Of a stretch of 64,000 nt of DNA, positions 22,261 through 33,005 are shown one piece after another (within the stretch, counting starts at the first letter, position 1; each line of letters opens with the position of its first letter). The notes below the pieces were generated by a model. The model did not search any database. It saw only the letters and a list, made by a program, of their open reading frames with translations, and had not been told where the DNA came from. The position numbers were made by a program, and so were the translations under genes. This stretch comes from Saprospiraceae bacterium (lineage in GTDB: Bacteria; Bacteroidota; Bacteroidia; Chitinophagales; Saprospiraceae). The stretch spans positions 1,262 to 65,261 of the forward strand of contig JBDTWI010000008.1 of NCBI GenBank assembly GCA_040006775.1, read 5' to 3'.

Positions 22261-22647
22261 ATGTCTGAAAGCCTACTTAAACCAACTAACTCTGAAATGG
22301 AGATTTTGCAAGTCTTCTGGAAGCAAGGCGCATCTACGGTTAAAGATATCAACACCGTTCTCAATGAGAAAAAGGCAAGAGGCTATACAACCACTTTGAA
22401 GATCATGCAAATCATGGCAGACAAAGGATTATTAAACAGGATTCCCCAGGGTAAACTCCACATCTATAATTCAGCGTTCACTGAAGAGGACATAAAGTCA
22501 AGAATGGTGGACAGTCTAATAGAACAGGTTTTTGAGGGTGCTGCCATGGATATGGTTATGCAAGCATTAGGTAATTATTCTCCCTCAGCAAGTGAGATAT
22601 CTGAATTAAAGGAATTGCTGGCAAGGATGGAGCAGGTTAAAAAATAA
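22261..22647 (+). CDS. BlaI/MecI/CopY-family winged-helix transcriptional repressor
   Basis: 128 aa. The N-terminus is TNSEMEILQVFWKQGASTVKDI..GYTTTLKIMQIMADKGLL, typical of the penicillinase-repressor family. It sits directly upstream of an M56 peptidase gene. Confidence 0.85.
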   Translation: MSESLLKPTNSEMEILQVFWKQGASTVKDINTVLNEKKARGYTTTLKIMQIMADKGLLNRIPQGKLHIYNSAFTEEDIKSRMVDSLIEQVFEGAAMDMVMQALGNYSPSASEISELKELLARMEQVKK

Positions 22648-22672
22648 TTTAGATGTAGAATAAGAAGGTATA

Positions 22673-24139
22673 ATGAAAAAAATATTAGAGAACATCAATA
22701 TTCAAGATTTTCAAGAATATATTGCTTTAAGCATTATACAAAGTCTATGGATTGGTTCTTTACTGGTAATTGTCCTTTTGTTGTTAGAATTATTTAGGCC
22801 TTCACTTTCGATTTCAAATCTTCATAAGTATTATAAGTATTCATTATTCACTATTCTTCTTTGTTCTTTATTCGTTAATTCTTCTTTTTTAATTTCAGAT
22901 TCCCTAGATGTATTGACCTTTTTTGATATTCAGTTTAGTTCAAAATTGATTCATTGGTTAAGTATATTTTGGCTTATTGGAGGAATTTGTTACTTGACTA
23001 AATTGACGATAGCCCAACACTACATTAATAAAATTGTCAGACAAGGGAAGGATAAATTTCCAGAGGACTGGATATTACTTTTGAATAAGTCTAAGCAAAA
23101 AATAGCTTATTTAAAAGACGTTAGCTTTTTGTTTTCAGATAGAATACATTCTGCTTTCGTAACTGGAATCATCAAACCAATTTTTGTAATACCTTTAAGT
23201 TGGATCAATAACTTAACTCATGAAGAAGCTGAATTTATTCTAATTCATGAAATTGCACATTTAAAAGCCAAAGATCAGTACATCAATATCGTTTGTAATT
23301 TTACAGAAATAATTTTGTTTTATAATCCCGCGGTACATTTTATTATAAAACGAATTCGTTTTCAAAGGGAATTATGTGCAGACCAAATGGTCATAAAGCA
23401 TATCTCAAAGCCTTTAGCTTATGCCTCATTGTTGGTAAAAATTGGAGAGAACCCACAACTAAAACCTATAGTTGCATTTAGTTCTATTAAAAATCAACTA
23501 GGCTTAAGAGTAAAGAGTATACTGCAATTAGAAACTCATTCAAATAAAAACCTGCAGGGTTTCTTATATCCAATATTTATAGGTATACTCACTTTGATTC
23601 TAATGAATAACATGCCAAATCAAGTGCAGACAGAATTAGCTCAAACAAATCCAATTAATTTAGCCCAAGCTAAAGTTAAAAAAGAAATTGCAAGTGTAAT
23701 AAATAAAAGGGAAAATAGGACTGAAAAAAAATCTTCAAGGAATCCAATAATTAAGAAACAGAGAGATGCCTTTAAAGATAAAAAACACCCACAACTGAAA
23801 ATTAACGAGCTTGATTTGGCAGAAAATTCAGAACCGCTCATTGTTATTAAAGATGAATTCAACGCTTCAGGAGATCCTATGCAATTCATGAAAGAGGTCG
23901 ATTTTACCATGTCTAAATCTTTAGTAAATAAAATAAAGCCAAGTGAATACGGGGGTAGTTCATCGAGACTCACTAGCATATTCAAGGATCGCAATTATAT
24001 TTTTGATAAAGATGGTAAGCATAGAGTTTATCCACAACAAAAATTATATAAATACTTTTTAATAAAAGATCCTCGAAATACATTCTTAAGTTATTCCTTC
24101 AGTTTGCAAAGTATAAATCAATTTTCAACCATAAATTAA
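22673..24139 (+). CDS. BlaR1-like M56-family membrane zinc metalloprotease / signal transducer (no recognisable beta-lactam sensor domain)
   Basis: 488 aa. N-terminal TM helices and an HExxH motif in LIHEIAHLKAKD. The C-terminal region of about 180 aa is K/E/N-rich. Confidence 0.8.
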   Translation: MKKILENINIQDFQEYIALSIIQSLWIGSLLVIVLLLLELFRPSLSISNLHKYYKYSLFTILLCSLFVNSSFLISDSLDVLTFFDIQFSSKLIHWLSIFWLIGGICYLTKLTIAQHYINKIVRQGKDKFPEDWILLLNKSKQKIAYLKDVSFLFSDRIHSAFVTGIIKPIFVIPLSWINNLTHEEAEFILIHEIAHLKAKDQYINIVCNFTEIILFYNPAVHFIIKRIRFQRELCADQMVIKHISKPLAYASLLVKIGENPQLKPIVAFSSIKNQLGLRVKSILQLETHSNKNLQGFLYPIFIGILTLILMNNMPNQVQTELAQTNPINLAQAKVKKEIASVINKRENRTEKKSSRNPIIKKQRDAFKDKKHPQLKINELDLAENSEPLIVIKDEFNASGDPMQFMKEVDFTMSKSLVNKIKPSEYGGSSSRLTSIFKDRNYIFDKDGKHRVYPQQKLYKYFLIKDPRNTFLSYSFSLQSINQFSTIN

Positions 24140-25207: not shown

Positions 25208-26224
25208 ATGAGACTTACAGCTTTTTCAAGAATTCTAATCGTAGCACTCATTCTGGGAGGAATATTTTTAGCAATAAGAAAGTTCCAACCACAACTACTA
25301 GAAAATTTAAGCAAAACAGAAAAGACAGAATCTACAACTTCAGAGAGCACAGAGCCAACTAGTACAACTGGAGATAAAACTGGAAAAGAAGCTAAAGCTT
25401 CTAATGTTCCTGATAACAGACCCGTTTTTAGTTATACAGCCCCTGAACCTATAAATGGTAAACTTAGAGGTGTTGTAGAATTAGGAGCTGCAGGTTTCAA
25501 TTCATTTATAGTACTATCAGATGACCAAAAAAGATGGAAACTTGAAAAGTCTGAATTTGGATCCAGCTTAGTTTATGAGAATATGGCAACAGATATGGAT
25601 ATAAGATCCGGCTTAAAAAACTATATCGCTAAGATGTTAGATTTTGGAGTAAAAGGTAAGGATATACATTTCGTTGTAAGCTCAGGTGCAAAGAATGAGC
25701 CTTCTGTAGTTAAAATATCTAAGAATCTTAAGGATCTCGGGTACTTTGTCAATGAGGTTACTCCTCAACAAGAAGGTACTTACGGTTTAAATTGTGCTAT
25801 ACCTTCAGTTTTAGAATCTGAATCCTTTATGGTTGATATTGGTTCGGGAAATACTAAGATTTCGTATTCTAATATGGGAAAAGTCAGTGCCTTCGAATCC
25901 TATGGATCGAAGTATTTTCAAAAAAACATAGCTGAAGACCTTGTTTATAAAGAAGTAAGATCTGTAGTATCACAAATTCCCTCTTCAAATAGAAAAACTT
26001 GTTTTATTATTGGAGGTATTCCTTTTGAACTTGCAAAGCAAGTTAGAGATGGAAAGGAGAGGTATACAGTTCTTATGGCGCCAAAGGATTATTCAATTAG
26101 TGGAGACAAACAAAGAGCTGGTGTAAATATCTATAAAGCAGTCTATGATGAGACAGGATGTAAAATATTCGTATTCGATTGGGATGCAAATTTTACCATA
26201 GGATTTTTACTTGGATTAAAGTAA
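25208..26224 (+). CDS. membrane-anchored ASKHA-fold protein, Ppx/GppA-like with degenerate phosphate-1 motif
   Basis: 338 aa. TM anchor (ILIVALILGGIFLAI) and an S/T/E-rich linker. The ordered motifs GVVELGAAGFNSFIV, HFVVSSGAKNE, VTPQQEGTYG and VDIGSGNTKIS resemble the Ppx/GppA N-terminal domains. Confidence 0.5.
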   Translation: MRLTAFSRILIVALILGGIFLAIRKFQPQLLENLSKTEKTESTTSESTEPTSTTGDKTGKEAKASNVPDNRPVFSYTAPEPINGKLRGVVELGAAGFNSFIVLSDDQKRWKLEKSEFGSSLVYENMATDMDIRSGLKNYIAKMLDFGVKGKDIHFVVSSGAKNEPSVVKISKNLKDLGYFVNEVTPQQEGTYGLNCAIPSVLESESFMVDIGSGNTKISYSNMGKVSAFESYGSKYFQKNIAEDLVYKEVRSVVSQIPSSNRKTCFIIGGIPFELAKQVRDGKERYTVLMAPKDYSISGDKQRAGVNIYKAVYDETGCKIFVFDWDANFTIGFLLGLK

Positions 26225-26240
26225 TATTCTATGCATTCCA

Positions 26241-26278
26241 AAAAAATAAGCCTTGACATGAGTTGAGGCTTTTTTTTA
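26241..26278 (+). terminator. rho-independent terminator after the ASKHA-like gene
   Basis: AAGCCT (26248-26253) pairs with AGGCTT (26266-26271). An A-run precedes the stem and a T8 run follows it. Confidence 0.5.
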
Positions 26279-26427
26279 TTAAATCATTAATATACAATAG
26301 ATTAAATTTTTATTCATCCGTTATAAAAGTATAGATGAATTAATAATTCTATAAATAGACTAAAAAAACTCTATTAAATTTTTTTAATAAATTATTAATA
26401 TGATCTTTACATGAAATTATATTCTGA

Positions 26428-26940
26428 ATGGATAATGTCATACTTTCAAAAGATATGAATTGGGAACTTGTTGAAGTTTTTGAAAAGAATTTTCAACTTA
26501 AAAAAGCCATTAATAAAAATGTGCATGGATTGTTTGCCAATAAAAATTTTAAAGAGGGTGAAACAATTATTAATTTTAGAACCAAGAATATCGTATCAAA
26601 GCCAACTTATCTAACTGTACAGTTAGAAGATCAAAAGCATTTTAGTTTGGATCCCGACTTTTTACAATACATGAATCACAGTTGTGATCCAAATATTTTC
26701 ATGGATACTACGGAATTAAAGTTAGTAACATTAAGGCCAATATCTAAAGATGAAGAGCTGAATTTTTTCTATCCATCTACAGAGTGGGAGATGGAACAAG
26801 CTTTTATCTGCAATTGCGGCTCAAAGGAATGTCATACTTTTATTTCAGGAGCTGGTGCATTGAAATTAGAAGTTCTCAATAAATATAGACTCAACGAATT
26901 TATAAAACGTAAACTGCGTGAGGCCGGGAAGTCTATTTGA
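26428..26940 (+). CDS. stand-alone SET-domain methyltransferase
   Basis: 170 aa. GLFANKNFKEGETI, NHSCDPN, DEELNFFY (catalytic Tyr position) and a post-SET-like CNCGSKEC. Confidence 0.85.
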   Translation: MDNVILSKDMNWELVEVFEKNFQLKKAINKNVHGLFANKNFKEGETIINFRTKNIVSKPTYLTVQLEDQKHFSLDPDFLQYMNHSCDPNIFMDTTELKLVTLRPISKDEELNFFYPSTEWEMEQAFICNCGSKECHTFISGAGALKLEVLNKYRLNEFIKRKLREAGKSI

Positions 26941-28009
26941 AGGATATCATATTTGGGTAATTGCCCCATCGGTTGAAAGTGACGATCCCAACATCAACTA
27001 CTATTATGACTTTGATCAGAGCATTCAGGAATATACTAAAGTATTCGAAGAACTGTCATTAAGCTGGACTTGGCAAATTATTCGATTGGATAATTATCAA
27101 AAAATAATAGAGGAAATTAAAGGAGATGCACAATTAAGAAAGGTACTTGTATTGAATTTATGTGATGGAGATGAGGTAAACCAAGCACCTGGAATTAGTG
27201 TTATCCGAGAACTTGAGTTACATAGATTAAACTATACCGGGTCTAAAGAATTTTTTTACGAAGTGACCACTTCAAAAATTCCAATGAAAAAAGTATTTGA
27301 TGATTCCAAAATAAATACACCGATATGGGAAGTCCTTGCTGAAGATGGAAGCAGTATTCCCGGAATTTTTGAACGATTAGGTTCGCCAATAATTATTAAG
27401 CCATCAGTCTCAGGTGGAAGTATGGGAGTTGGAATAACAAATGTCGTTGAAACAGAAGTGGATTGTAAAAAGGTACTGGATAAAATTAAGGAAGGTTATC
27501 GAGGCTGGAATCTGTTGATAGATGGAATTATTGCAGAAAGATTTATTCCAGGAAGAGAATTTACAACGCTTATCGTTGGCAGCTATACAAATCCATCGGA
27601 ACTAATTTATTATTCACCCATAGAAAGAGTATTCAATAAAACACTACCGGCTACCGAACAGTTTCTTTCTTTTGATAGGCTCTGGGAAACTTATGATGAA
27701 GAATCTTCCTTAGGTGAGAATGAATATTTATTTCAATACCATCCACCGGAAAAGAATTTGAATGAACAAATAAAAAAATTAAGTATAGATAGCTACATTG
27801 CACTGCGGGGAACTGGATACACTCGAATTGACATAAGAATGGATTCAAATGATAAGACCATGTATGTATTGGAGGCCAATGCGCAATGCGGATTAAGCGA
27901 GGATGAAAATTATACCTCTATAGGAGCGATATTAAGAGTAAACAATAAAAAATTTAGTGAATTGATTTCTGAGATTATGAACGAAGCAATAATTCGTAAA
28001 GCATCATGA
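26918..28009 (+). CDS. ATP-grasp ligase, D-Ala-D-Ala-ligase-like
   Basis: 363 aa. NLCDGDE..GISVIRELELHRLNYTG, IIIKPSVSGGSMGV, AERFIPGREFTTLIVG and GYTRIDIRMD..MYVLEANAQCG. GTG start overlaps the SET gene by 23 nt. Confidence 0.8.
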   Translation: MRPGSLFEGYHIWVIAPSVESDDPNINYYYDFDQSIQEYTKVFEELSLSWTWQIIRLDNYQKIIEEIKGDAQLRKVLVLNLCDGDEVNQAPGISVIRELELHRLNYTGSKEFFYEVTTSKIPMKKVFDDSKINTPIWEVLAEDGSSIPGIFERLGSPIIIKPSVSGGSMGVGITNVVETEVDCKKVLDKIKEGYRGWNLLIDGIIAERFIPGREFTTLIVGSYTNPSELIYYSPIERVFNKTLPATEQFLSFDRLWETYDEESSLGENEYLFQYHPPEKNLNEQIKKLSIDSYIALRGTGYTRIDIRMDSNDKTMYVLEANAQCGLSEDENYTSIGAILRVNNKKFSELISEIMNEAIIRKAS

Positions 28010-29478
28010 AGGTATGTATACTACAACCGGATTATGGGAGTTCTTCAATAGACTATAAGAACTATGATCCAAAACGAAACTTAACAGACTTACTACCGGA
28101 AGATGAAGTACATCATGTTTTTTTAAATAAACTGACTACTTATAGCCAGATTAAAGAATTGTCAAATCAAAACTTTGACATTTTTGTAAATCTCTGTGAA
28201 GGATATTTGGAATGGGATATCCCATCAATTGATGTCATAAATTCTTTAGAATTACTTAATCTACCTTATACCGGTCCAAGTAGCAAACTCTATGATCCGC
28301 CTAAGGATCTTATGAAATATGTATCCTACTGTGAAGGGATAAAGACCCCGCTTTACTATAAGGTATCTGATAAATATCAAATTGCTGATATAGAGTCTAT
28401 TTTGAATTATCCAATGTTTGTCAAACCACTTAAAGCAGGAGATAGTCTTGGAATTGATTTGAACTCAAGATGTACCAATTCAAATGAATTAGAAGAAAAG
28501 CTAAATCAGTTGTTGAAAGATTATGATGACGTATTGGTTGAAGAATGTATTGACGGAAGAGAATTTACTGTTTTGGTTGCTTCTAATCCACAATTGGAGA
28601 AAGAGTGTGTTAGTTTCTCTCCTGTTGAATACATTTTTCCAAAAGGCTATAGTTACAAAACATATTCTTTAAAGACTTCTGAGCTCCATCCGGAATCAAA
28701 TAGGATCTGTAACGACCTTGAATTAGAACTGGGTCTGAGAGATGCAGCTGAAAGAATTTTTAAAGCATTCAATGGGATTGGATATGCGAGATTGGATTTT
28801 AGAATTAATGATCAAAGGGAGATATATTTTCTGGAGATCAATTTTACCTGTTCCGTTTTTTATAATAAAGGTTATGAAGGTTCCGCGGATTATGTGTTAG
28901 AATTTGATGGTATCGGCCAAGCCGGATTTCTTAAATTAATTATTGCAGAAGGAATTGCGAGACATAAATCTAAACAAAAGGTTTATGAAATGAAGGGCAA
29001 CGCAATAAGTGGATTTGGTATTTATTCTAAGACAGATATTAGAAAAGGGCAGATAATTTTCAGAGGAGAAGAGAAAGGACACAGATTAGTTACAAAGAGA
29101 CATGTAAGAAAGAACTGGAATCAGGAAGACAAAAGATATTTTGCACAATATGCATATCCAATCAGTGAACAAGTCTATGCACTGTGGGATGATGATCCAA
29201 TGGAATGGGCACCTCAGAATCACAGTTGTTCTCCGAATACACATTATGATGGATTAAATGTACTTGCTTCACGTACAATTCGCAAAGGTGAAGAGCTGAC
29301 CTTAGACTATTCAAGTTTTTTAGATGATCAAGCAGAGCGCTTCCAATGCAAATGCGGTAGTCCTGAATGTAAAAAGATTATTAAAGGAAATAAGCTAAAT
29401 TCCGTAACGGAAAGAGAAATTAATCAAGCTAAACCAAGGGTTAAAAAATCTTATGTTACATCAATTTCAGAGAAGTAA
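28006..29478 (+). CDS. ATP-grasp ligase fused to a C-terminal SET-domain methyltransferase
   Basis: 490 aa. The N-terminal two-thirds is paralogous to the preceding gene (NLCEGY..VINSLELLNLPYTG, MFVKPLKAGDSLGI, VEECIDGREFTVLV, GYARLDFRIN..IYFLEINFTCS). The C-terminal part is a SET domain (GFGIYS..GQII, NHSCSPN, GEELTLDY, CKCGSPEC). ATGA overlap with the upstream gene. Confidence 0.85.
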   Translation: MKVCILQPDYGSSSIDYKNYDPKRNLTDLLPEDEVHHVFLNKLTTYSQIKELSNQNFDIFVNLCEGYLEWDIPSIDVINSLELLNLPYTGPSSKLYDPPKDLMKYVSYCEGIKTPLYYKVSDKYQIADIESILNYPMFVKPLKAGDSLGIDLNSRCTNSNELEEKLNQLLKDYDDVLVEECIDGREFTVLVASNPQLEKECVSFSPVEYIFPKGYSYKTYSLKTSELHPESNRICNDLELELGLRDAAERIFKAFNGIGYARLDFRINDQREIYFLEINFTCSVFYNKGYEGSADYVLEFDGIGQAGFLKLIIAEGIARHKSKQKVYEMKGNAISGFGIYSKTDIRKGQIIFRGEEKGHRLVTKRHVRKNWNQEDKRYFAQYAYPISEQVYALWDDDPMEWAPQNHSCSPNTHYDGLNVLASRTIRKGEELTLDYSSFLDDQAERFQCKCGSPECKKIIKGNKLNSVTEREINQAKPRVKKSYVTSISEK

Positions 29479-29632
29479 TACCGATTGGAATTAATTTTAA
29501 TTCAAAATAGGATATTATTTCCAACCGAGTATGATACACGTAATGATTTGATTGGAAATTCAATATAGTTATTGGGACTTATTTGTGAATCATTAATGTA
29601 TAAAATTATTGGGAATTTGATTCTTAGATAAC
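29479..29632 (-). repeat. dispersed intergenic repeat, inverted copy of the 18261-18364 family
   Basis: It starts with TACCGATTGGAATTA immediately after the stop codon and shares ordered blocks with the reverse complement of 18261-18364. It contains an internal insertion. Confidence 0.65.
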
Positions 29633-29657
29633 ATTTCAAAGGATACATTATATTAAT

Positions 29658-29805
29658 GGCTTATTGAAGTTTCCAGCTTCAATTCATAGGTAACCGAAAT
29701 GTTTTTGTCATCATTTTTGCAAATTCATTCAATAATCTTGATTATCGAAGTTTGAAATTGCGATGCTTTATCTAGAATGTGTAATTCTGGGTGAATCATA
29801 GTTGA
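29658..29805 (+). repeat. composite intergenic repeat: 57-bp hairpin block plus one unit related to the 102-bp tandem repeat
   Basis: GGCTTATTGAAGTTTCCAGCTTCAATTCATAGGTAACCGAAATGTTTTTGTCATCAT (29658-29714) is nearly identical to 32290-32346. GCGATGC..TCTAGAAT.TGTAATTC..ATCATAGTT (about 29747-29805) matches the tandem-array unit. Confidence 0.75.
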
Positions 29806-29903
29806 ATACATCTTGCCAAATTATTAAGCTTATCGGTAATTAGCTTATGATACAACTTCTTCAAATTAGATATTCTGTTATCTTTGACTAAAGTAATTTA
29901 GAT

Positions 29904-30128
29904 ATGACTAGAAATACACTGATCAATAATATTTCAGCTCTTGTTCAAAGTATTGAAAATGAAGACTTTTTACAATCTTTATATGAACTTTTAAAAAATC
30001 ATAAAACGATTAAGCCCGGAGAACTATGGAATAGTCTTACCCAAGATCAAAAAGACCAAGTTTTAAAGGCATTTGAAGATTCTGAAAATGAAGAAAATTT
30101 AATTCCGGAGGAAAAAATATTTAAATAA
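29904..30128 (+). CDS. small acidic helical hypothetical protein (antitoxin-like; weak)
   Basis: 74-aa ORF embedded in repeat-rich non-coding DNA. Its size and charge pattern resemble small addiction-module components, but no partner gene is present. Confidence 0.4.
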   Translation: MTRNTLINNISALVQSIENEDFLQSLYELLKNHKTIKPGELWNSLTQDQKDQVLKAFEDSENEENLIPEEKIFK

Positions 30129-30210
30129 CCAATGTATTAGAAAAAATATAATTTCGGAAATCTTTTCAAATAGAAAAACCAACCAGTGCGAAGAATTAGA
30201 CTGAAATGAA

Positions 30211-30292
30211 TTTCTGAAATTCATAGTTCGTGAATTGTCAAATAAATCATACTTGTCAAGCTTTAGCATGAGTTCAAACAATAATCAGCGGC
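30211..30292 (+). repeat. partial copy of the 102-bp repeat unit
   Basis: AAATCATACTTGTCAAGCTTTAGCATGAGTTCAAACAAT matches the unit segment AAATCATACCTGTCAAGCTTTAGCATGAGTTCAGACAAT. Confidence 0.7.
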
Positions 30293-30386
30293 TAACATGT
30301 TATATCATATAGCAGTCGAAGTCATTGAACTTACTTTGTAGAGTTTCTTTAATCTAATTTGATTGGTTAAGCAGTTACTTAATAAC

Positions 30387-31916
30387 CTACTTTATAAATT
30401 TCCCACCTGCGAATGCACCATTAATACTTTTGATCTGAAAGAAATATATTCCGGATGATAAATCATCACAATCAATCATCACTTCGGAAGAATAATTCGC
30501 AATCTTCTCATATTTATGAATGCGACCAGTGATATCATATAAACCCAAATAGCTTTCAACTTCCAATGGATGAGGAAAAAGAATATTTAAATGATCCGTT
30601 ATTGGATTCGGATAATAAACTAAACTTGAACTAAAGTCAAATTCGTCAATCTGAGAAGTAAGGAACTTAATCGTACTCTCACAAGGATAGGGTTCATCAA
30701 TTCGAAAGTGTGGGAAGTTAGGAATGGAACTATGATTCAAGAATGGTAATTGAATGGCTTGTTGCACGAATTCACAGGCAGTTCCTTTATTGTTTGGATG
30801 CATAATTACATTCATACACGTCTGCTGATAATTACTAACCATATATATTCTGCAGTCTGGACCAAGGACCATTGGTCCGAATCTGGTTTTTCTTTTAAGT
30901 CCTGGATCACAGCTTACATTGTTGGTTGAGGCAACAAAGACCTCCGAAGATTTAATGTCAGAAGCTGTAATATCATATTGAAAAAGATCAACGCGGGTGC
31001 TTACATAAACATAACGATTATCAGGACTAAAACACACACCACATATTCCAGGTTCCAGTGTATCAATAACCGATATCTTTCTGTAATTAGAAAATATGCC
31101 TAATTCTCTATCAAAGTCCATTAATTCTAATCCAAATTTACTAGAATAATAAGCATAATGCTTTCCATTTGGACTAAAGCTAGCAAATTCTAAATCTCCA
31201 TCTTTAAAATATTCTCCTATTTTTTGCTGTTTATATTTAATAGTGTCAGCACTATTATTAATAATAAAGAATAAATTATCTTGATCTTTTCGAATAATTA
31301 TCCACCAACCCAAATCATTCTTCATTTTAACAGCTGTCATGGATCCGGTAGGCAAGGTATCTTTAAGTATTGGTTCATTCTTAAAAAGAACTGTAAATAA
31401 ATTACTTGAGTCAGAGTAGATTAATTCAGTTAAAAGTACATGAGGAGAATAAAGAAATTTTTTTCCTATTACTGTTTCTAAACTTAAGTAGAAGTAATTA
31501 GTTTTGCTAGTTAATTTTGGAAGTATAATCCCACCTTGAGGAATTTCGAGACCACTAGGATATAACAAACCTTCTTTAATGCAATTTTCATAATAGTCAT
31601 TAATAGGGTTCAAACTATCACTTCCTGGTATTTTATTATTGTCAGAATCTAATAAATAACACCCATCAGTATAGAAGATAATTTCTCCATTCTTATCACA
31701 TATAGAAGCATTGTGTGAATTCATGTAATAAGGCTTATGATTAATAATTATCTTAACTTCTCCATTGTTAAAATCAAGATCCATTCCGCCAAAGTAGGAC
31801 TTATTGTAAGGTGTTCCATCAGGACTTCCCAGCATCCATCGATAATCTTCTTTCTGAGCAATTGTAGTTAATGACAAACTCAAGAATAATAAAATATAAC
31901 TTAGATGTTTATGCAT
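30387..31916 (-). CDS. T9SS-secreted hypothetical protein (beta-rich, possibly propeller-like)
   Basis: Signal peptide MHKHLSYILLFLSLSLTTIAQ starts at the internal ATG 31914-31916; the track start at 31967 adds 17 non-signal residues. The C-terminal YYPNPITDHLNI..GIYFFQIKS.. tail fits a T9SS CTD. Confidence 0.75.
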   Translation of the reverse strand: MHKHLSYILLFLSLSLTTIAQKEDYRWMLGSPDGTPYNKSYFGGMDLDFNNGEVKIIINHKPYYMNSHNASICDKNGEIIFYTDGCYLLDSDNNKIPGSDSLNPINDYYENCIKEGLLYPSGLEIPQGGIILPKLTSKTNYFYLSLETVIGKKFLYSPHVLLTELIYSDSSNLFTVLFKNEPILKDTLPTGSMTAVKMKNDLGWWIIIRKDQDNLFFIINNSADTIKYKQQKIGEYFKDGDLEFASFSPNGKHYAYYSSKFGLELMDFDRELGIFSNYRKISVIDTLEPGICGVCFSPDNRYVYVSTRVDLFQYDITASDIKSSEVFVASTNNVSCDPGLKRKTRFGPMVLGPDCRIYMVSNYQQTCMNVIMHPNNKGTACEFVQQAIQLPFLNHSSIPNFPHFRIDEPYPCESTIKFLTSQIDEFDFSSSLVYYPNPITDHLNILFPHPLEVESYLGLYDITGRIHKYEKIANYSSEVMIDCDDLSSGIYFFQIKSINGAFAGGKFIK

Positions 31917-32289
31917 AATTTGAAATAAAATGGGTGTACACATCGATGTTCTTCTTGTCTGCAACAAATAATTTAACCTAAAGATAAGTTAGAAAAATTG
32001 TTAATTTATCAATTTAAGATTTTAACCAAATGTAACAAGTTAAAATAGCAATGCAAAATGTCTATTTTTTCAAGAACGTATAAATTTTAAATCTACTATT
32101 GCAATTTGAACTATTGTCTATTGCCATGCTATTTATTGTCACCATTTTTGCAAATGATACAAATTTGAAATAATATTTTACCTAAAATTAACTGGTATCA
32201 TACCGACAGGCATTGATTCTTTATAAGCTTATTACATGGATATATATGTCTCGTCGGTATTTCATGCAAAAATGCCGCCAAAAAAAGCT

Positions 32290-32346
32290 GGCTTATTGAA
32301 GCTTCTAGCTTCAATTCATAGGTAACCGAAATGTTTTTGTCATCAT
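32290..32346 (+). repeat. 57-bp hairpin block, second copy
   Basis: GGCTTATTGAAGCTTCTAGCTTCAATTCATAGGTAACCGAAATGTTTTTGTCATCAT. It contains the perfect 9-bp stem ATTGAAGCT/AGCTTCAAT. Confidence 0.8.
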
Positions 32347-32370
32347 GTTGACCTGATCGGCTGATCGTCG

Positions 32371-32707
32371 CAGTTTATAACTGCGATGCAATACACCTAG
32401 AATTTGTAATTCTAAATGAATCATAACCCATCATAAAATCACACAAATCATAGTTCAGACAATGAACTTCGATGCGATATCTCTAGAATTTGTAATTCAT
32501 AATCATAGTTTGTCATATAATCATTCAAATCATACCTGTAAAGCTTTAGCATGAGTTCAGACAATGAACTTCGATGTGATATCTCTAGAATTCGTAATTC
32601 AAAATCATAGTTTGTCATATAATCATTCAAATCATACCTGTCAAGCTTTAGCATGAGTTCAGACAATGAACTTCGATGCGATATCTCTAGAATTTGTAAT
32701 TCAAAAT
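32371..32707 (+). repeat. tandem array of a 102-bp unit (about 2.5 well-conserved copies from 32453, plus one degenerate leading copy)
   Basis: GTTCAGACAATGAACTTCGATG recurs at 32453, 32555 and 32657, an exact 102-nt period. The units differ by a few substitutions. Confidence 0.9.
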
Positions 32708-33005
32708 GCATTACTTAAAAAGTATGAATTAGAAGCCGTCTCAATCTCTGACCATCAAGAATAAATAAATGAACAATCCAAATTTTCAAATTGAAGAAAC
32801 ATAGATTCAAGCTGAATTTTGAAATAGTAATTGAAATCTCTAATTTAAATTTTAAATGAACACTCTGAAATGAATTTCATAAGATATTCCTTCTACGAAG
32901 TTTCGCGAAATAAGCGTCTTGCCATCACAAATGTCAGAATTGAGTTCGTTTTGCCTAATCGGTCTAAACTATAGTTTTTACTACTAAAATTGAAGCGTCT
33001 CGGCT

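Follow-up and report, generated by a model that had tools for sequence, protein, structure and literature searches.

SET domains are textbook chromatin enzymes. What, then, are two of them doing in a bacterium, encoded together with two ATP-grasp ligases in three overlapping genes? This question is raised by a locus of Saprospiraceae bacterium (assembly GCA_040006775.1), located in a stretch of 64,000 nucleotides (nt) of contig JBDTWI010000008.1 (positions 1,262 to 65,261 of the forward strand) that we refer to as the window. The answer developed below is a predicted ligate-and-methylate pathway, which has about an even chance of acting on a small amino-acid-derived molecule or short peptide and not on histone-like proteins. 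The three genes, here called g1, g2 and g3, are listed with their positions in the window, their lengths in amino acids (aa) and their Pfam matches.

26428..26940, + strand: g1, a BurB-like, stand-alone minimal SET-domain methyltransferase of 170 aa (SET, 1.8e-11)
26918..28009, + strand: g2, a Ddl-fold ATP-grasp ligase of 363 aa without a SET domain, with a GTG start (Dala_Dala_lig_C, 1.4e-12)
28006..29478, + strand: g3, a protein of 490 aa with an ATP-grasp ligase part (residues ~1–325) and a second SET domain (~326–465) (Dala_Dala_lig_C, 3.1e-21; SET, 1.1e-11)

A first-pass annotation of the window had described three same-strand genes with overlapping boundaries, and all three open reading frames (ORFs) were indeed present at these coordinates on the + strand. 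Both overlaps that it gave were also found in the sequence. Genes g1 and g2 overlap by 23 nt, with the GTG at 26918–26920 inside g1 and the TGA of g1 at 26938–26940, and g2 and g3 overlap by the 4 nt of an ATGA at 28006–28009. Close to where conservation of the g2 family begins at the N-terminus, the GTG is the sole start in frame. The motifs quoted for the SET and ATP-grasp domains are present in the translations, and the Pfam profile search agrees with them. The G+C content of the cassette region equals that of the rest of the window, which is ordinary chromosome carrying a nuo operon and genes for the DNA polymerase III delta' subunit, a SurA-like peptidyl-prolyl isomerase (PPIase) and cargo proteins of the type IX secretion system (T9SS). 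A protein of a Saprospiraceae metagenome-assembled genome (MAG) is 100% identical to g3, and no plasmid copy of the cassette was found. The trio is one autonomous operon that is inherited chromosomally.

Ligase and SET domains of g2 and g3

In Pfam, PDB and Foldseek searches alike, the two ligase parts match D-alanine–D-alanine ligases (Ddl) best. When a profile of 15 g2 orthologues was compared with structures, Ddl stood alone at the top, followed by PurD and the BacD-type amino-acid ligases. The 50 top-ranked Foldseek matches listed for the AlphaFold2 (AF2) model of g3 (pLDDT 87.8, pTM 0.85) were all Ddl or D-Ala-D-Lac ligases (TMt 0.65–0.79, 17–20% identity). The RimK model TIGR00768 gave a partial, weak match of 25.9 bits against a cut-off of 143, and the TTL family (PF03133) matched neither g2 nor g3 at E ≤0.01. 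On the NCBIfam Ddl models, g2 scored 80.5 bits with NF002378 (cut-off 243) and 65.3 bits with TIGR01205 (cut-off 245.65), and the corresponding scores of g3 were 75.7 and 86.4 bits. The two proteins resemble Ddl/VanA and the L-amino-acid ligases (BacD/YwfE, BL00235) in the three-domain ATP-grasp fold and in the ATP/Mg and acyl-phosphate residues, and they differ from these enzymes in being linked by operon or fusion to SET methyltransferases.

In the g2 family, the motifs NLCDGDE and SGGS are invariant, as are K161, E207, E214, R303-D305-R307 and E319-N321. The ligase part of g3 has K140, E179, E180, E186, K223, R262, D264, R266, E277 and N279 invariant in 47 sequences. We aligned g3 with a reference sequence of Escherichia coli DdlB whose residue numbering agrees. 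In this alignment, K140, E179/E180, E186, K223, R262, D264, E277 and N279 of g3 correspond to K144, E180, E187, K215, R255, D257, E270 and N272 of DdlB. Neither the D-Ala triad E15/S150/Y216 nor the GGxSxE loop at the N-terminus is conserved; the position of Y216 is Thr in g3 and that of S150 is Asp, and the family carries the motif NLC(D/E)G instead. This suggests that g2 and g3 are Ddl-fold ligases with substrates other than those of the cell-wall Ddl.

The C-terminal part of g3 matches the Pfam SET model with 45.5 bits (cut-off 22.4), and H406, C408, Y435, C448, C450 and C455 are invariant in the same 47 sequences. The first-pass annotation had proposed to check whether the SET domains keep the residues for catalysis, and in both SET families, that of g1 and that of g3, the NHS motif, the catalytic Tyr and the four zinc-binding Cys are kept. 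As these sites and the ATP/Mg residues of the ligases are retained, the proteins are predicted to be active enzymes. The same annotation had regarded the ligases of g2 and g3 as paralogous, which agrees with the identity of 26% between them (E 4e-21). Its further idea, that one split and fused domain pair had been duplicated to form a hetero-oligomer, fared less evenly. Natural fusions, described below, back the hetero-oligomer, whereas the two SET domains (27% identity, E 3e-11) belong to distinct, anciently diverged sub-families and are not parts of one copied pair. The split and fused modules thus appear to be ancient paralogues rather than the result of a recent duplication.

Relation of g1 to BurB

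The g1 protein scored 44.8 bits on Pfam SET (PF00856, cut-off 22.4). In 43 homologues, Y61, L62, T63, Q65, N83, H84, C86, Y115, C128, C130 and C135 are invariant, and S85 is at least 90% conserved. By sequence, the best PDB match of g1 is BurB (9l4t, E 1.8e-11, over g1 residues 37–146). The next match is KMT2B at 5e-7, and the histone methyltransferases, at ~5e-7, align with the C-terminal half of g1 only. The fold search gave BurB at the top as well (9l4v, E 2.3e-10, TM 0.67/0.71, 166 columns), here with the AF2 model of g1 (pLDDT 90.6) as the query; behind it came MLL4 (4e-7, TM 0.51), ASH1L and SETD2 (E ≥4e-7, TM ~0.5–0.6). BurB is the nearest characterised relative of g1, both by sequence and by fold.

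BurB is a SET protein of 172 aa from Burkholderia thailandensis that converts free L-methionine to S-methylmethionine (SMM) and holds the amino acid via its main-chain atoms (PMC12542666). Like BurB, g1 is a minimal stand-alone SET domain of ~170 aa with a post-SET CxCx4C motif, and the two have in common a T-x-Q strand and a Y-x-S-T-E segment that line the substrate site of BurB. They differ in the NHS motif, where g1 has the canonical Asn and BurB has Leu, and in several contacts with S-adenosylmethionine (SAM), as Arg133 and His138 of BurB are Gln and Asn in g1. The genomic setting also differs: BurB is encoded in a malleicyprol/dimethylsulfoniopropionate (DMSP) cluster with BurI, BurD and BurE and without an ATP-grasp ligase; g1, in contrast, is invariably accompanied by two Ddl-like ligases. 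Domains of the BurI, BurD and BurE type (SMM decarboxylase, aminotransferase and aldehyde dehydrogenase) were found neither in the flanking genes nor in the related loci. The identity between g1 and BurB is only 25% as aligned by Foldseek and ~30% as aligned by HMMER, so g1 is not a BurB orthologue. Nevertheless, the general expectation that SET domains are mostly protein-lysine methyltransferases, on which the first-pass annotation drew, is a weak guide for g1, because its nearest characterised relative methylates free methionine.

Synteny and domain fusions

We scanned one genome per bacterial species for relatives of g3, with a narrower alignment because the 21-sequence alignment A1 was too diverse. 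This yielded at least 582 related stretches. Synteny was analysed in 83 loci, consisting of the best 80 of these stretches and three that had been fetched earlier, all from Chitinophagales or Saprospiraceae. The order g1-g2-g3, on the same strand, was found in 73 of the 83 loci; five contained g2-g3 only, two contained g3 only and three were cut by contig ends. An exhaustive profile-free search gave 217 clusters (50% identity) with E <1e-30. Carriers include cultured strains of Terrimonas and Ferruginibacter.

Whether homologues are syntenic elsewhere was another check that the first-pass annotation had put forward. The order of the trio is retained while its flanks differ between families: in Saprospiraceae, the cassette lies between BlaR, a PDZ protein and a 338-aa gene on one side and T9SS cargo on the other, and in Chitinophagaceae it is preceded by a PIF1-type helicase and a CHU_C protein and followed by ABC_membrane_3, MnmG and YbeY. 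The trio therefore moves as a block. Between the families, g3 is ~62% identical.

The modules have also been fused in several ways. An 844-aa protein joins g2 and g3, with a g1-like gene directly 5' of it (P0011, L092). In Acidobacteriota and others, proteins of ~645 aa consist of g3 with a second SET domain at the C-terminus, which is nearer to g1 (35–41% identity) than to the SET domain of g3. The architecture of P0277 is ligase-SET-SET-ligase. The module is found in eukaryotic proteins from EukProt too: in P0258, a 1415-aa protein of Mesostigma viride, a green alga, ligase-SET is preceded by four g1-like SET domains in tandem, and P0386, of 6220 aa, contains the same ligase-SET module. This suggests transfer of the ligase-SET module between bacteria and algae. 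The synteny, the fusions, which cover every pairwise combination, and the invariant active sites together give good sequence-level support for a functional link between ligation and methylation, and the proteins encoded by g1, g2 and g3 probably work as a physical complex.

One locus departs from the intact form of g2. In a nanopore-derived Chitinophagaceae MAG (L026, 6728–7903), the g2 orthologue is split into ORFs of 202 and 143 aa, which is either a frameshift error or a pseudogene.

Substrate and proposed mechanism

Next, we consider what the cassette acts on. The chances that it is a ligate-and-methylate pathway for a small amino-acid-derived molecule or a short peptide seem to us evenly balanced, and this is the reading we favour, because both ligases have the Ddl fold, BurB is the nearest relative on the SET side, no target or precursor is co-inherited and exporter genes recur as neighbours. 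The proposed system has four modules: g2 and the N-terminal part of g3 each supply a Ddl-fold ATP-grasp ligase, and g1 and the C-terminal part of g3 each supply a SAM-dependent SET domain. The ligase domains would use ATP/Mg to convert the carboxylate of a small amino-acid-like substrate to an acyl phosphate, which would be captured by an amine. Modelled on D-Ala-D-Ala ligase and the L-amino-acid ligases, this would yield a di- or tripeptide-like molecule. The BurB-like g1 may methylate a side-chain heteroatom (S or N) of the free amino-acid building block, and the SET domain tethered to the g3 ligase may in cis methylate what the ligases have joined. We would expect a methylated amino-acid conjugate, possibly with a sulfonium or quaternary ammonium group, that the cell could either retain as a solute or release; some other lineages encode a dedicated ABC exporter next door. 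In this scheme, it is an inference that the substrates are small molecules, and the same holds for the sequence of steps, the atom that receives the methyl group and the kind of product. A bolder version, which we put forward only tentatively, is that the cassette forms the core of an undescribed, widespread route in which small-molecule SET enzymes and Ddl-like ligases make a new class of methylated di- or tripeptides (sulfonium or quaternary ammonium), serving for example as an osmolyte, signal or antimetabolite. Such a route would occur in at least hundreds of species, in Bacteroidota and Acidobacteriota of soil and freshwater and in some algae.

The neighbourhood of the cassette bears on this reading in several ways. 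Neither a substrate protein nor a precursor peptide is encoded in the cassette or its leader, and a conserved candidate target gene was not found beside the cassette in any clade of loci examined; nor was an S6-like or carrier-protein gene found near it. The first-pass annotation had likewise reported an operon without substrate peptide or transporter, and none was found in the cassette, the leader or the adjoining genes of the window. In three Acidobacteriota-type loci whose surroundings are otherwise unrelated, an MsbA/HlyB-like ABC exporter adjoins the grasp-SET-SET fusion. These exporters are orthologous (43–58% identical) and carry a C-terminal cNMP-binding domain. In addition, a transmembrane-only ABC_membrane_3 gene lies ~100 nt after g3 in ~39 Chitinophagaceae loci, and its similarity to the Acidobacteriota ABC exporters is marginal (E 0.007).

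A number of observations pull the other way and weigh against a small-molecule substrate. Most characterised SET enzymes methylate proteins, and the identity of ~62% in g3 between families also fits a conserved macromolecular target. Exporters adjoin three of the seven grasp-SET-SET loci examined and are lacking in the other four. ABC_membrane_3 has no homologue in the window, where the cassette is without an adjacent transporter, and since MnmG and YbeY are conserved in the Chitinophagaceae loci as well, the adjacency of ABC_membrane_3 could be inherited synteny within one family. In one Bryobacteraceae locus, a JmjC/Cupin_8 gene, of an enzyme class that also acts on proteins, abuts the fusion on its 5' side. 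Finally, g1 falls below the criterion of at least 40% identity and at least 70% coverage by which homologues are recognised in the DMSP field (PMC11306096), as its identity to BurB does not reach that threshold.

Several of these points would be accommodated by modification of a protein or peptide tail, in which a conserved cellular protein receives amino acids from the ligases at a side chain or at its C-terminus, in the manner of RimK with ribosomal protein S6 and of TTL/TTLL with tubulin, and then has its lysines methylated by the SET domains. The canonical NHS, Tyr and post-SET zinc motifs of both SET domains are as in the protein-lysine methyltransferases that make up most of the SET superfamily. 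The matches of g1 that follow BurB are KMT2, ASH1L and SETD2, and the conservation of g3 across families and the Bryobacteraceae JmjC/Cupin_8 gene are in keeping with a protein target too. There is even a precedent for the domain combination in the eukaryotic protein TTLL12, in which a SET-like and an ATP-grasp (TTL) domain are joined (PMC3520985). However, no clade conserves a candidate target along with the cassette, the fold of the ligases is that of Ddl, with no TTL match and a sub-threshold RimK score, the nearest characterised SET enzyme acts on a free amino acid, and the association with ABC exporters fits a released product better. We therefore regard tail modification as rather unlikely, though as a serious rival. 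A narrower variant of the small-molecule reading is a sulfonium pathway of the SMM/DMSP type, with g1 as the equivalent of BurB that converts methionine to SMM and the ligases conjugating the product. That BurB is the top match of g1 in sequence and fold, at nearly the same length (172 versus 170 aa) with a full-length alignment, and that the substrate-site motifs are common to both, speaks for this variant. It is made improbable by the low identity, by the absence beside the cassette of the decarboxylase, aminotransferase and aldehyde dehydrogenase known from the DMSP genes of Burkholderia and Streptomyces, and by the NHS motif of g1, which lacks the Asn-to-Leu change of BurB, together with its different SAM contacts. 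Moreover, the known DMSP routes work without an ATP-grasp ligase; the DMSP enzyme DsyGD was checked as an ATP-grasp-containing precedent and was not supported.

Another possibility is that the ligases sit next to SET genes by coincidence and are either the usual D-Ala-D-Ala ligases of the cell wall or pseudo-enzymes without activity, as has been proposed for TTLL12. Ddl enzymes are their best matches, as shown above. Yet with 65–86 bits they stay well below the cut-offs of 243–246 of TIGR01205 and NF002378, and they have kept the ATP/Mg residues but not the triad E15/S150/Y216. Ordinary Ddl behaviour, which the first-pass annotation had named as a possible refutation of a dedicated pathway, is thus contradicted at the sequence level, and the idea of a dedicated pathway came through this check as it did through those on synteny and on the SET residues. 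Pseudo-enzymes do not fit the invariance of the catalytic residues, and a chance neighbourhood is excluded by the repeated fusion to SET domains and by a gene order that 73 of 83 loci share. We consider these explanations effectively excluded.

Two further neighbours were discounted as clues to the substrate. An MR_MLE (enolase-superfamily) gene lies directly 5' of the fusion in L090 and L091 and might have pointed to a dipeptide epimerase; it was set aside because the protein carries a Tat-type signal peptide. A kynureninase gene lies 20–40 nt 5' of g2-g3 on the same strand in three loci that lack g1 (L001, L005 and L007). This arrangement is limited to one sub-clade and is probably inherited synteny with the kynurenine/NAD pathway.

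Proteins with cNMP-binding domains were encoded beside the ligase-SET-SET gene in L085, L087, L088 and L094 (ABC exporters, and a HEAT-repeat cNMP protein). Cyclic nucleotides may thus have a regulatory role in the Acidobacteriota-type loci.

Comparison with known systems

The closest parallel in domain content is TTLL12, which has a SET-type domain and a ligase of the ATP-grasp superfamily in one polypeptide, as does g3. In TTLL12 the SET-like domain is N-terminal and the ligase is of the TTL type, whereas in g3 the SET domain is C-terminal and the ligase is of the Ddl type. TTLL12 has been reported to lack either activity (PMC3520985), in contrast to the invariant catalytic residues in the families of g1, g2 and g3. 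We treat the resemblance as an analogy rather than as an established homology of architecture. On the bolder reading given above, the cassette could also mark the prokaryotic origin of the eukaryotic SET and ATP-grasp combination.

RimK and LysX also belong to the ATP-grasp superfamily and form amide bonds via an acyl phosphate; they differ in that the fold search of g3 ranks Ddl enzymes first. The cassette differs from RiPP graspetide (microviridin-like) systems in three respects: its leader contains no precursor ORF, the small ORFs downstream are not conserved, and its ligases are Ddl-like and not RimK/MdnC-like. In Ngg-type osmolyte synthesis, which produces N-acetylglutaminylglutamine amide, an acetyltransferase tailoring domain is fused to an ATP-grasp dipeptide ligase. 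The likeness to our cassette lies in the concept only, that a tailoring enzyme and an amino-acid ligase make a small modified dipeptide, as the tailoring domain is an acetyltransferase there and a SET domain here.

Public databases list the fused architecture, automatically named "SET domain-containing protein-lysine N-methyltransferase". A full-text literature search found no paper describing the bacterial SET and Ddl-like cassette, with a passing mention in the amidoligase survey of Iyer et al. 2009 or in Aravind et al. 2011 being possible. Both superfamilies are known, and their combination in this cassette is uncharacterised, widespread and experimentally tractable. With three genes and no need for accessory genes, it is a compact conserved system. 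If the product is a small molecule, the cassette would reveal a new chemistry of methylated peptides in bacteria that abound in soil and water, and extend the small-molecule SET activity of the BurB type. Methylation of free amino acids by SET enzymes, so far represented by BurB and its Streptomyces homologue MSMT, would then be a broad bacterial theme. If the target is a protein, the cassette would be a bacterial counterpart of the tubulin-type logic of adding a residue and methylating. Either way, the automatic name "protein-lysine N-methyltransferase" lacks support and could be incorrect.

Leader, repeats and flanking genes

Two features precede the cassette.

26225..26427, + strand: A+T-rich leader/promoter region of the cassette, 203 nt, read from the sequence
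26248..26281, + strand: hairpin resembling an intrinsic terminator, with a 10-bp stem (4 GC pairs) followed by a T-run, TTTTTTATTA; predicted to end the upstream 338-aa gene and to insulate the cassette

The hairpin proper spans 26248–26271, so that the upstream isolation by a terminator hairpin and an A+T-rich spacer of ~200 bp described in the first-pass annotation is borne out. The leader (26225–26427) contains no riboswitch and no ORF of at least 18 aa, and no Rfam match came near the gathering score in the scan of 26100–30450. It also lacks an exact Bacteroidota -7 box (TAnnTTTG), which many other genes of the window carry 20–25 nt before the start. Across families, alignment A7 of the related loci has a semi-conserved element ~25 nt 5' of the g1 ATG (ATATCTTTnCAT-like / TTTATAnATATCTTTnCAT), and the leaders of Chitinophagaceae have an additional TTAATTATTCACATTTA ~90 nt 5' of g1. 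From their positions in this alignment, TTTATAnATATCTTTnCAT and TTAATTATTCACATTTA may be a promoter and an operator.

Downstream of g3, the first-pass annotation had reported isolation by non-coding repeats. These are weak within 29479–30386 alone, and 29440–30420 by itself contains just weak short repeats; in the wider region, dispersed repeats are real. The segments 29657–29717 and 30244–30282 recur at 92–96% identity in a repeat-rich spacer at 32289–32757, which holds a 102-nt tandem array of three copies (32452–32757) and a 43-nt sub-repeat of four copies (32379–32711). The family thus lies on both sides of the T9SS-cargo gene at 30387–31967. The repeats had no Rfam match in the scanned part (26100–30450) and could be a MITE-like or REP-like element, or a small RNA (sRNA) family.

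The same region contains a 74-aa acidic ORF at 29904–30128, preceded at 29879 by an exact Bacteroidota -7 box, TATCTTTG. In the closest relative, the T9SS gene lies 58 nt after g3 and the 74-aa ORF is absent. The ORF was rejected as a substrate of the cassette because of this absence, and the stretch of ~900 nt downstream of g3 looks like an insertion.

No PADLOC anti-phage defence model matched g1, g2, g3 or the flanking ORFs. Upstream of the cassette, the 338-aa gene (25208–26224) encodes a protein with an N-terminal membrane anchor and a DIGSGNTK motif that recalls actin-like (ASKHA) or Ppx/GppA-type phosphatases. The protein has no Pfam or NCBIfam match and is 76% identical to its counterpart in the related Saprospiraceae locus L004. 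Further upstream, at 22261–24139, a Penicillinase_R repressor of the BlaI type is paired with a BlaR1/M56 sensor-peptidase; next comes the gene for a PDZ protein that carries a T9SS sorting tail. L004 has this gene order as well.

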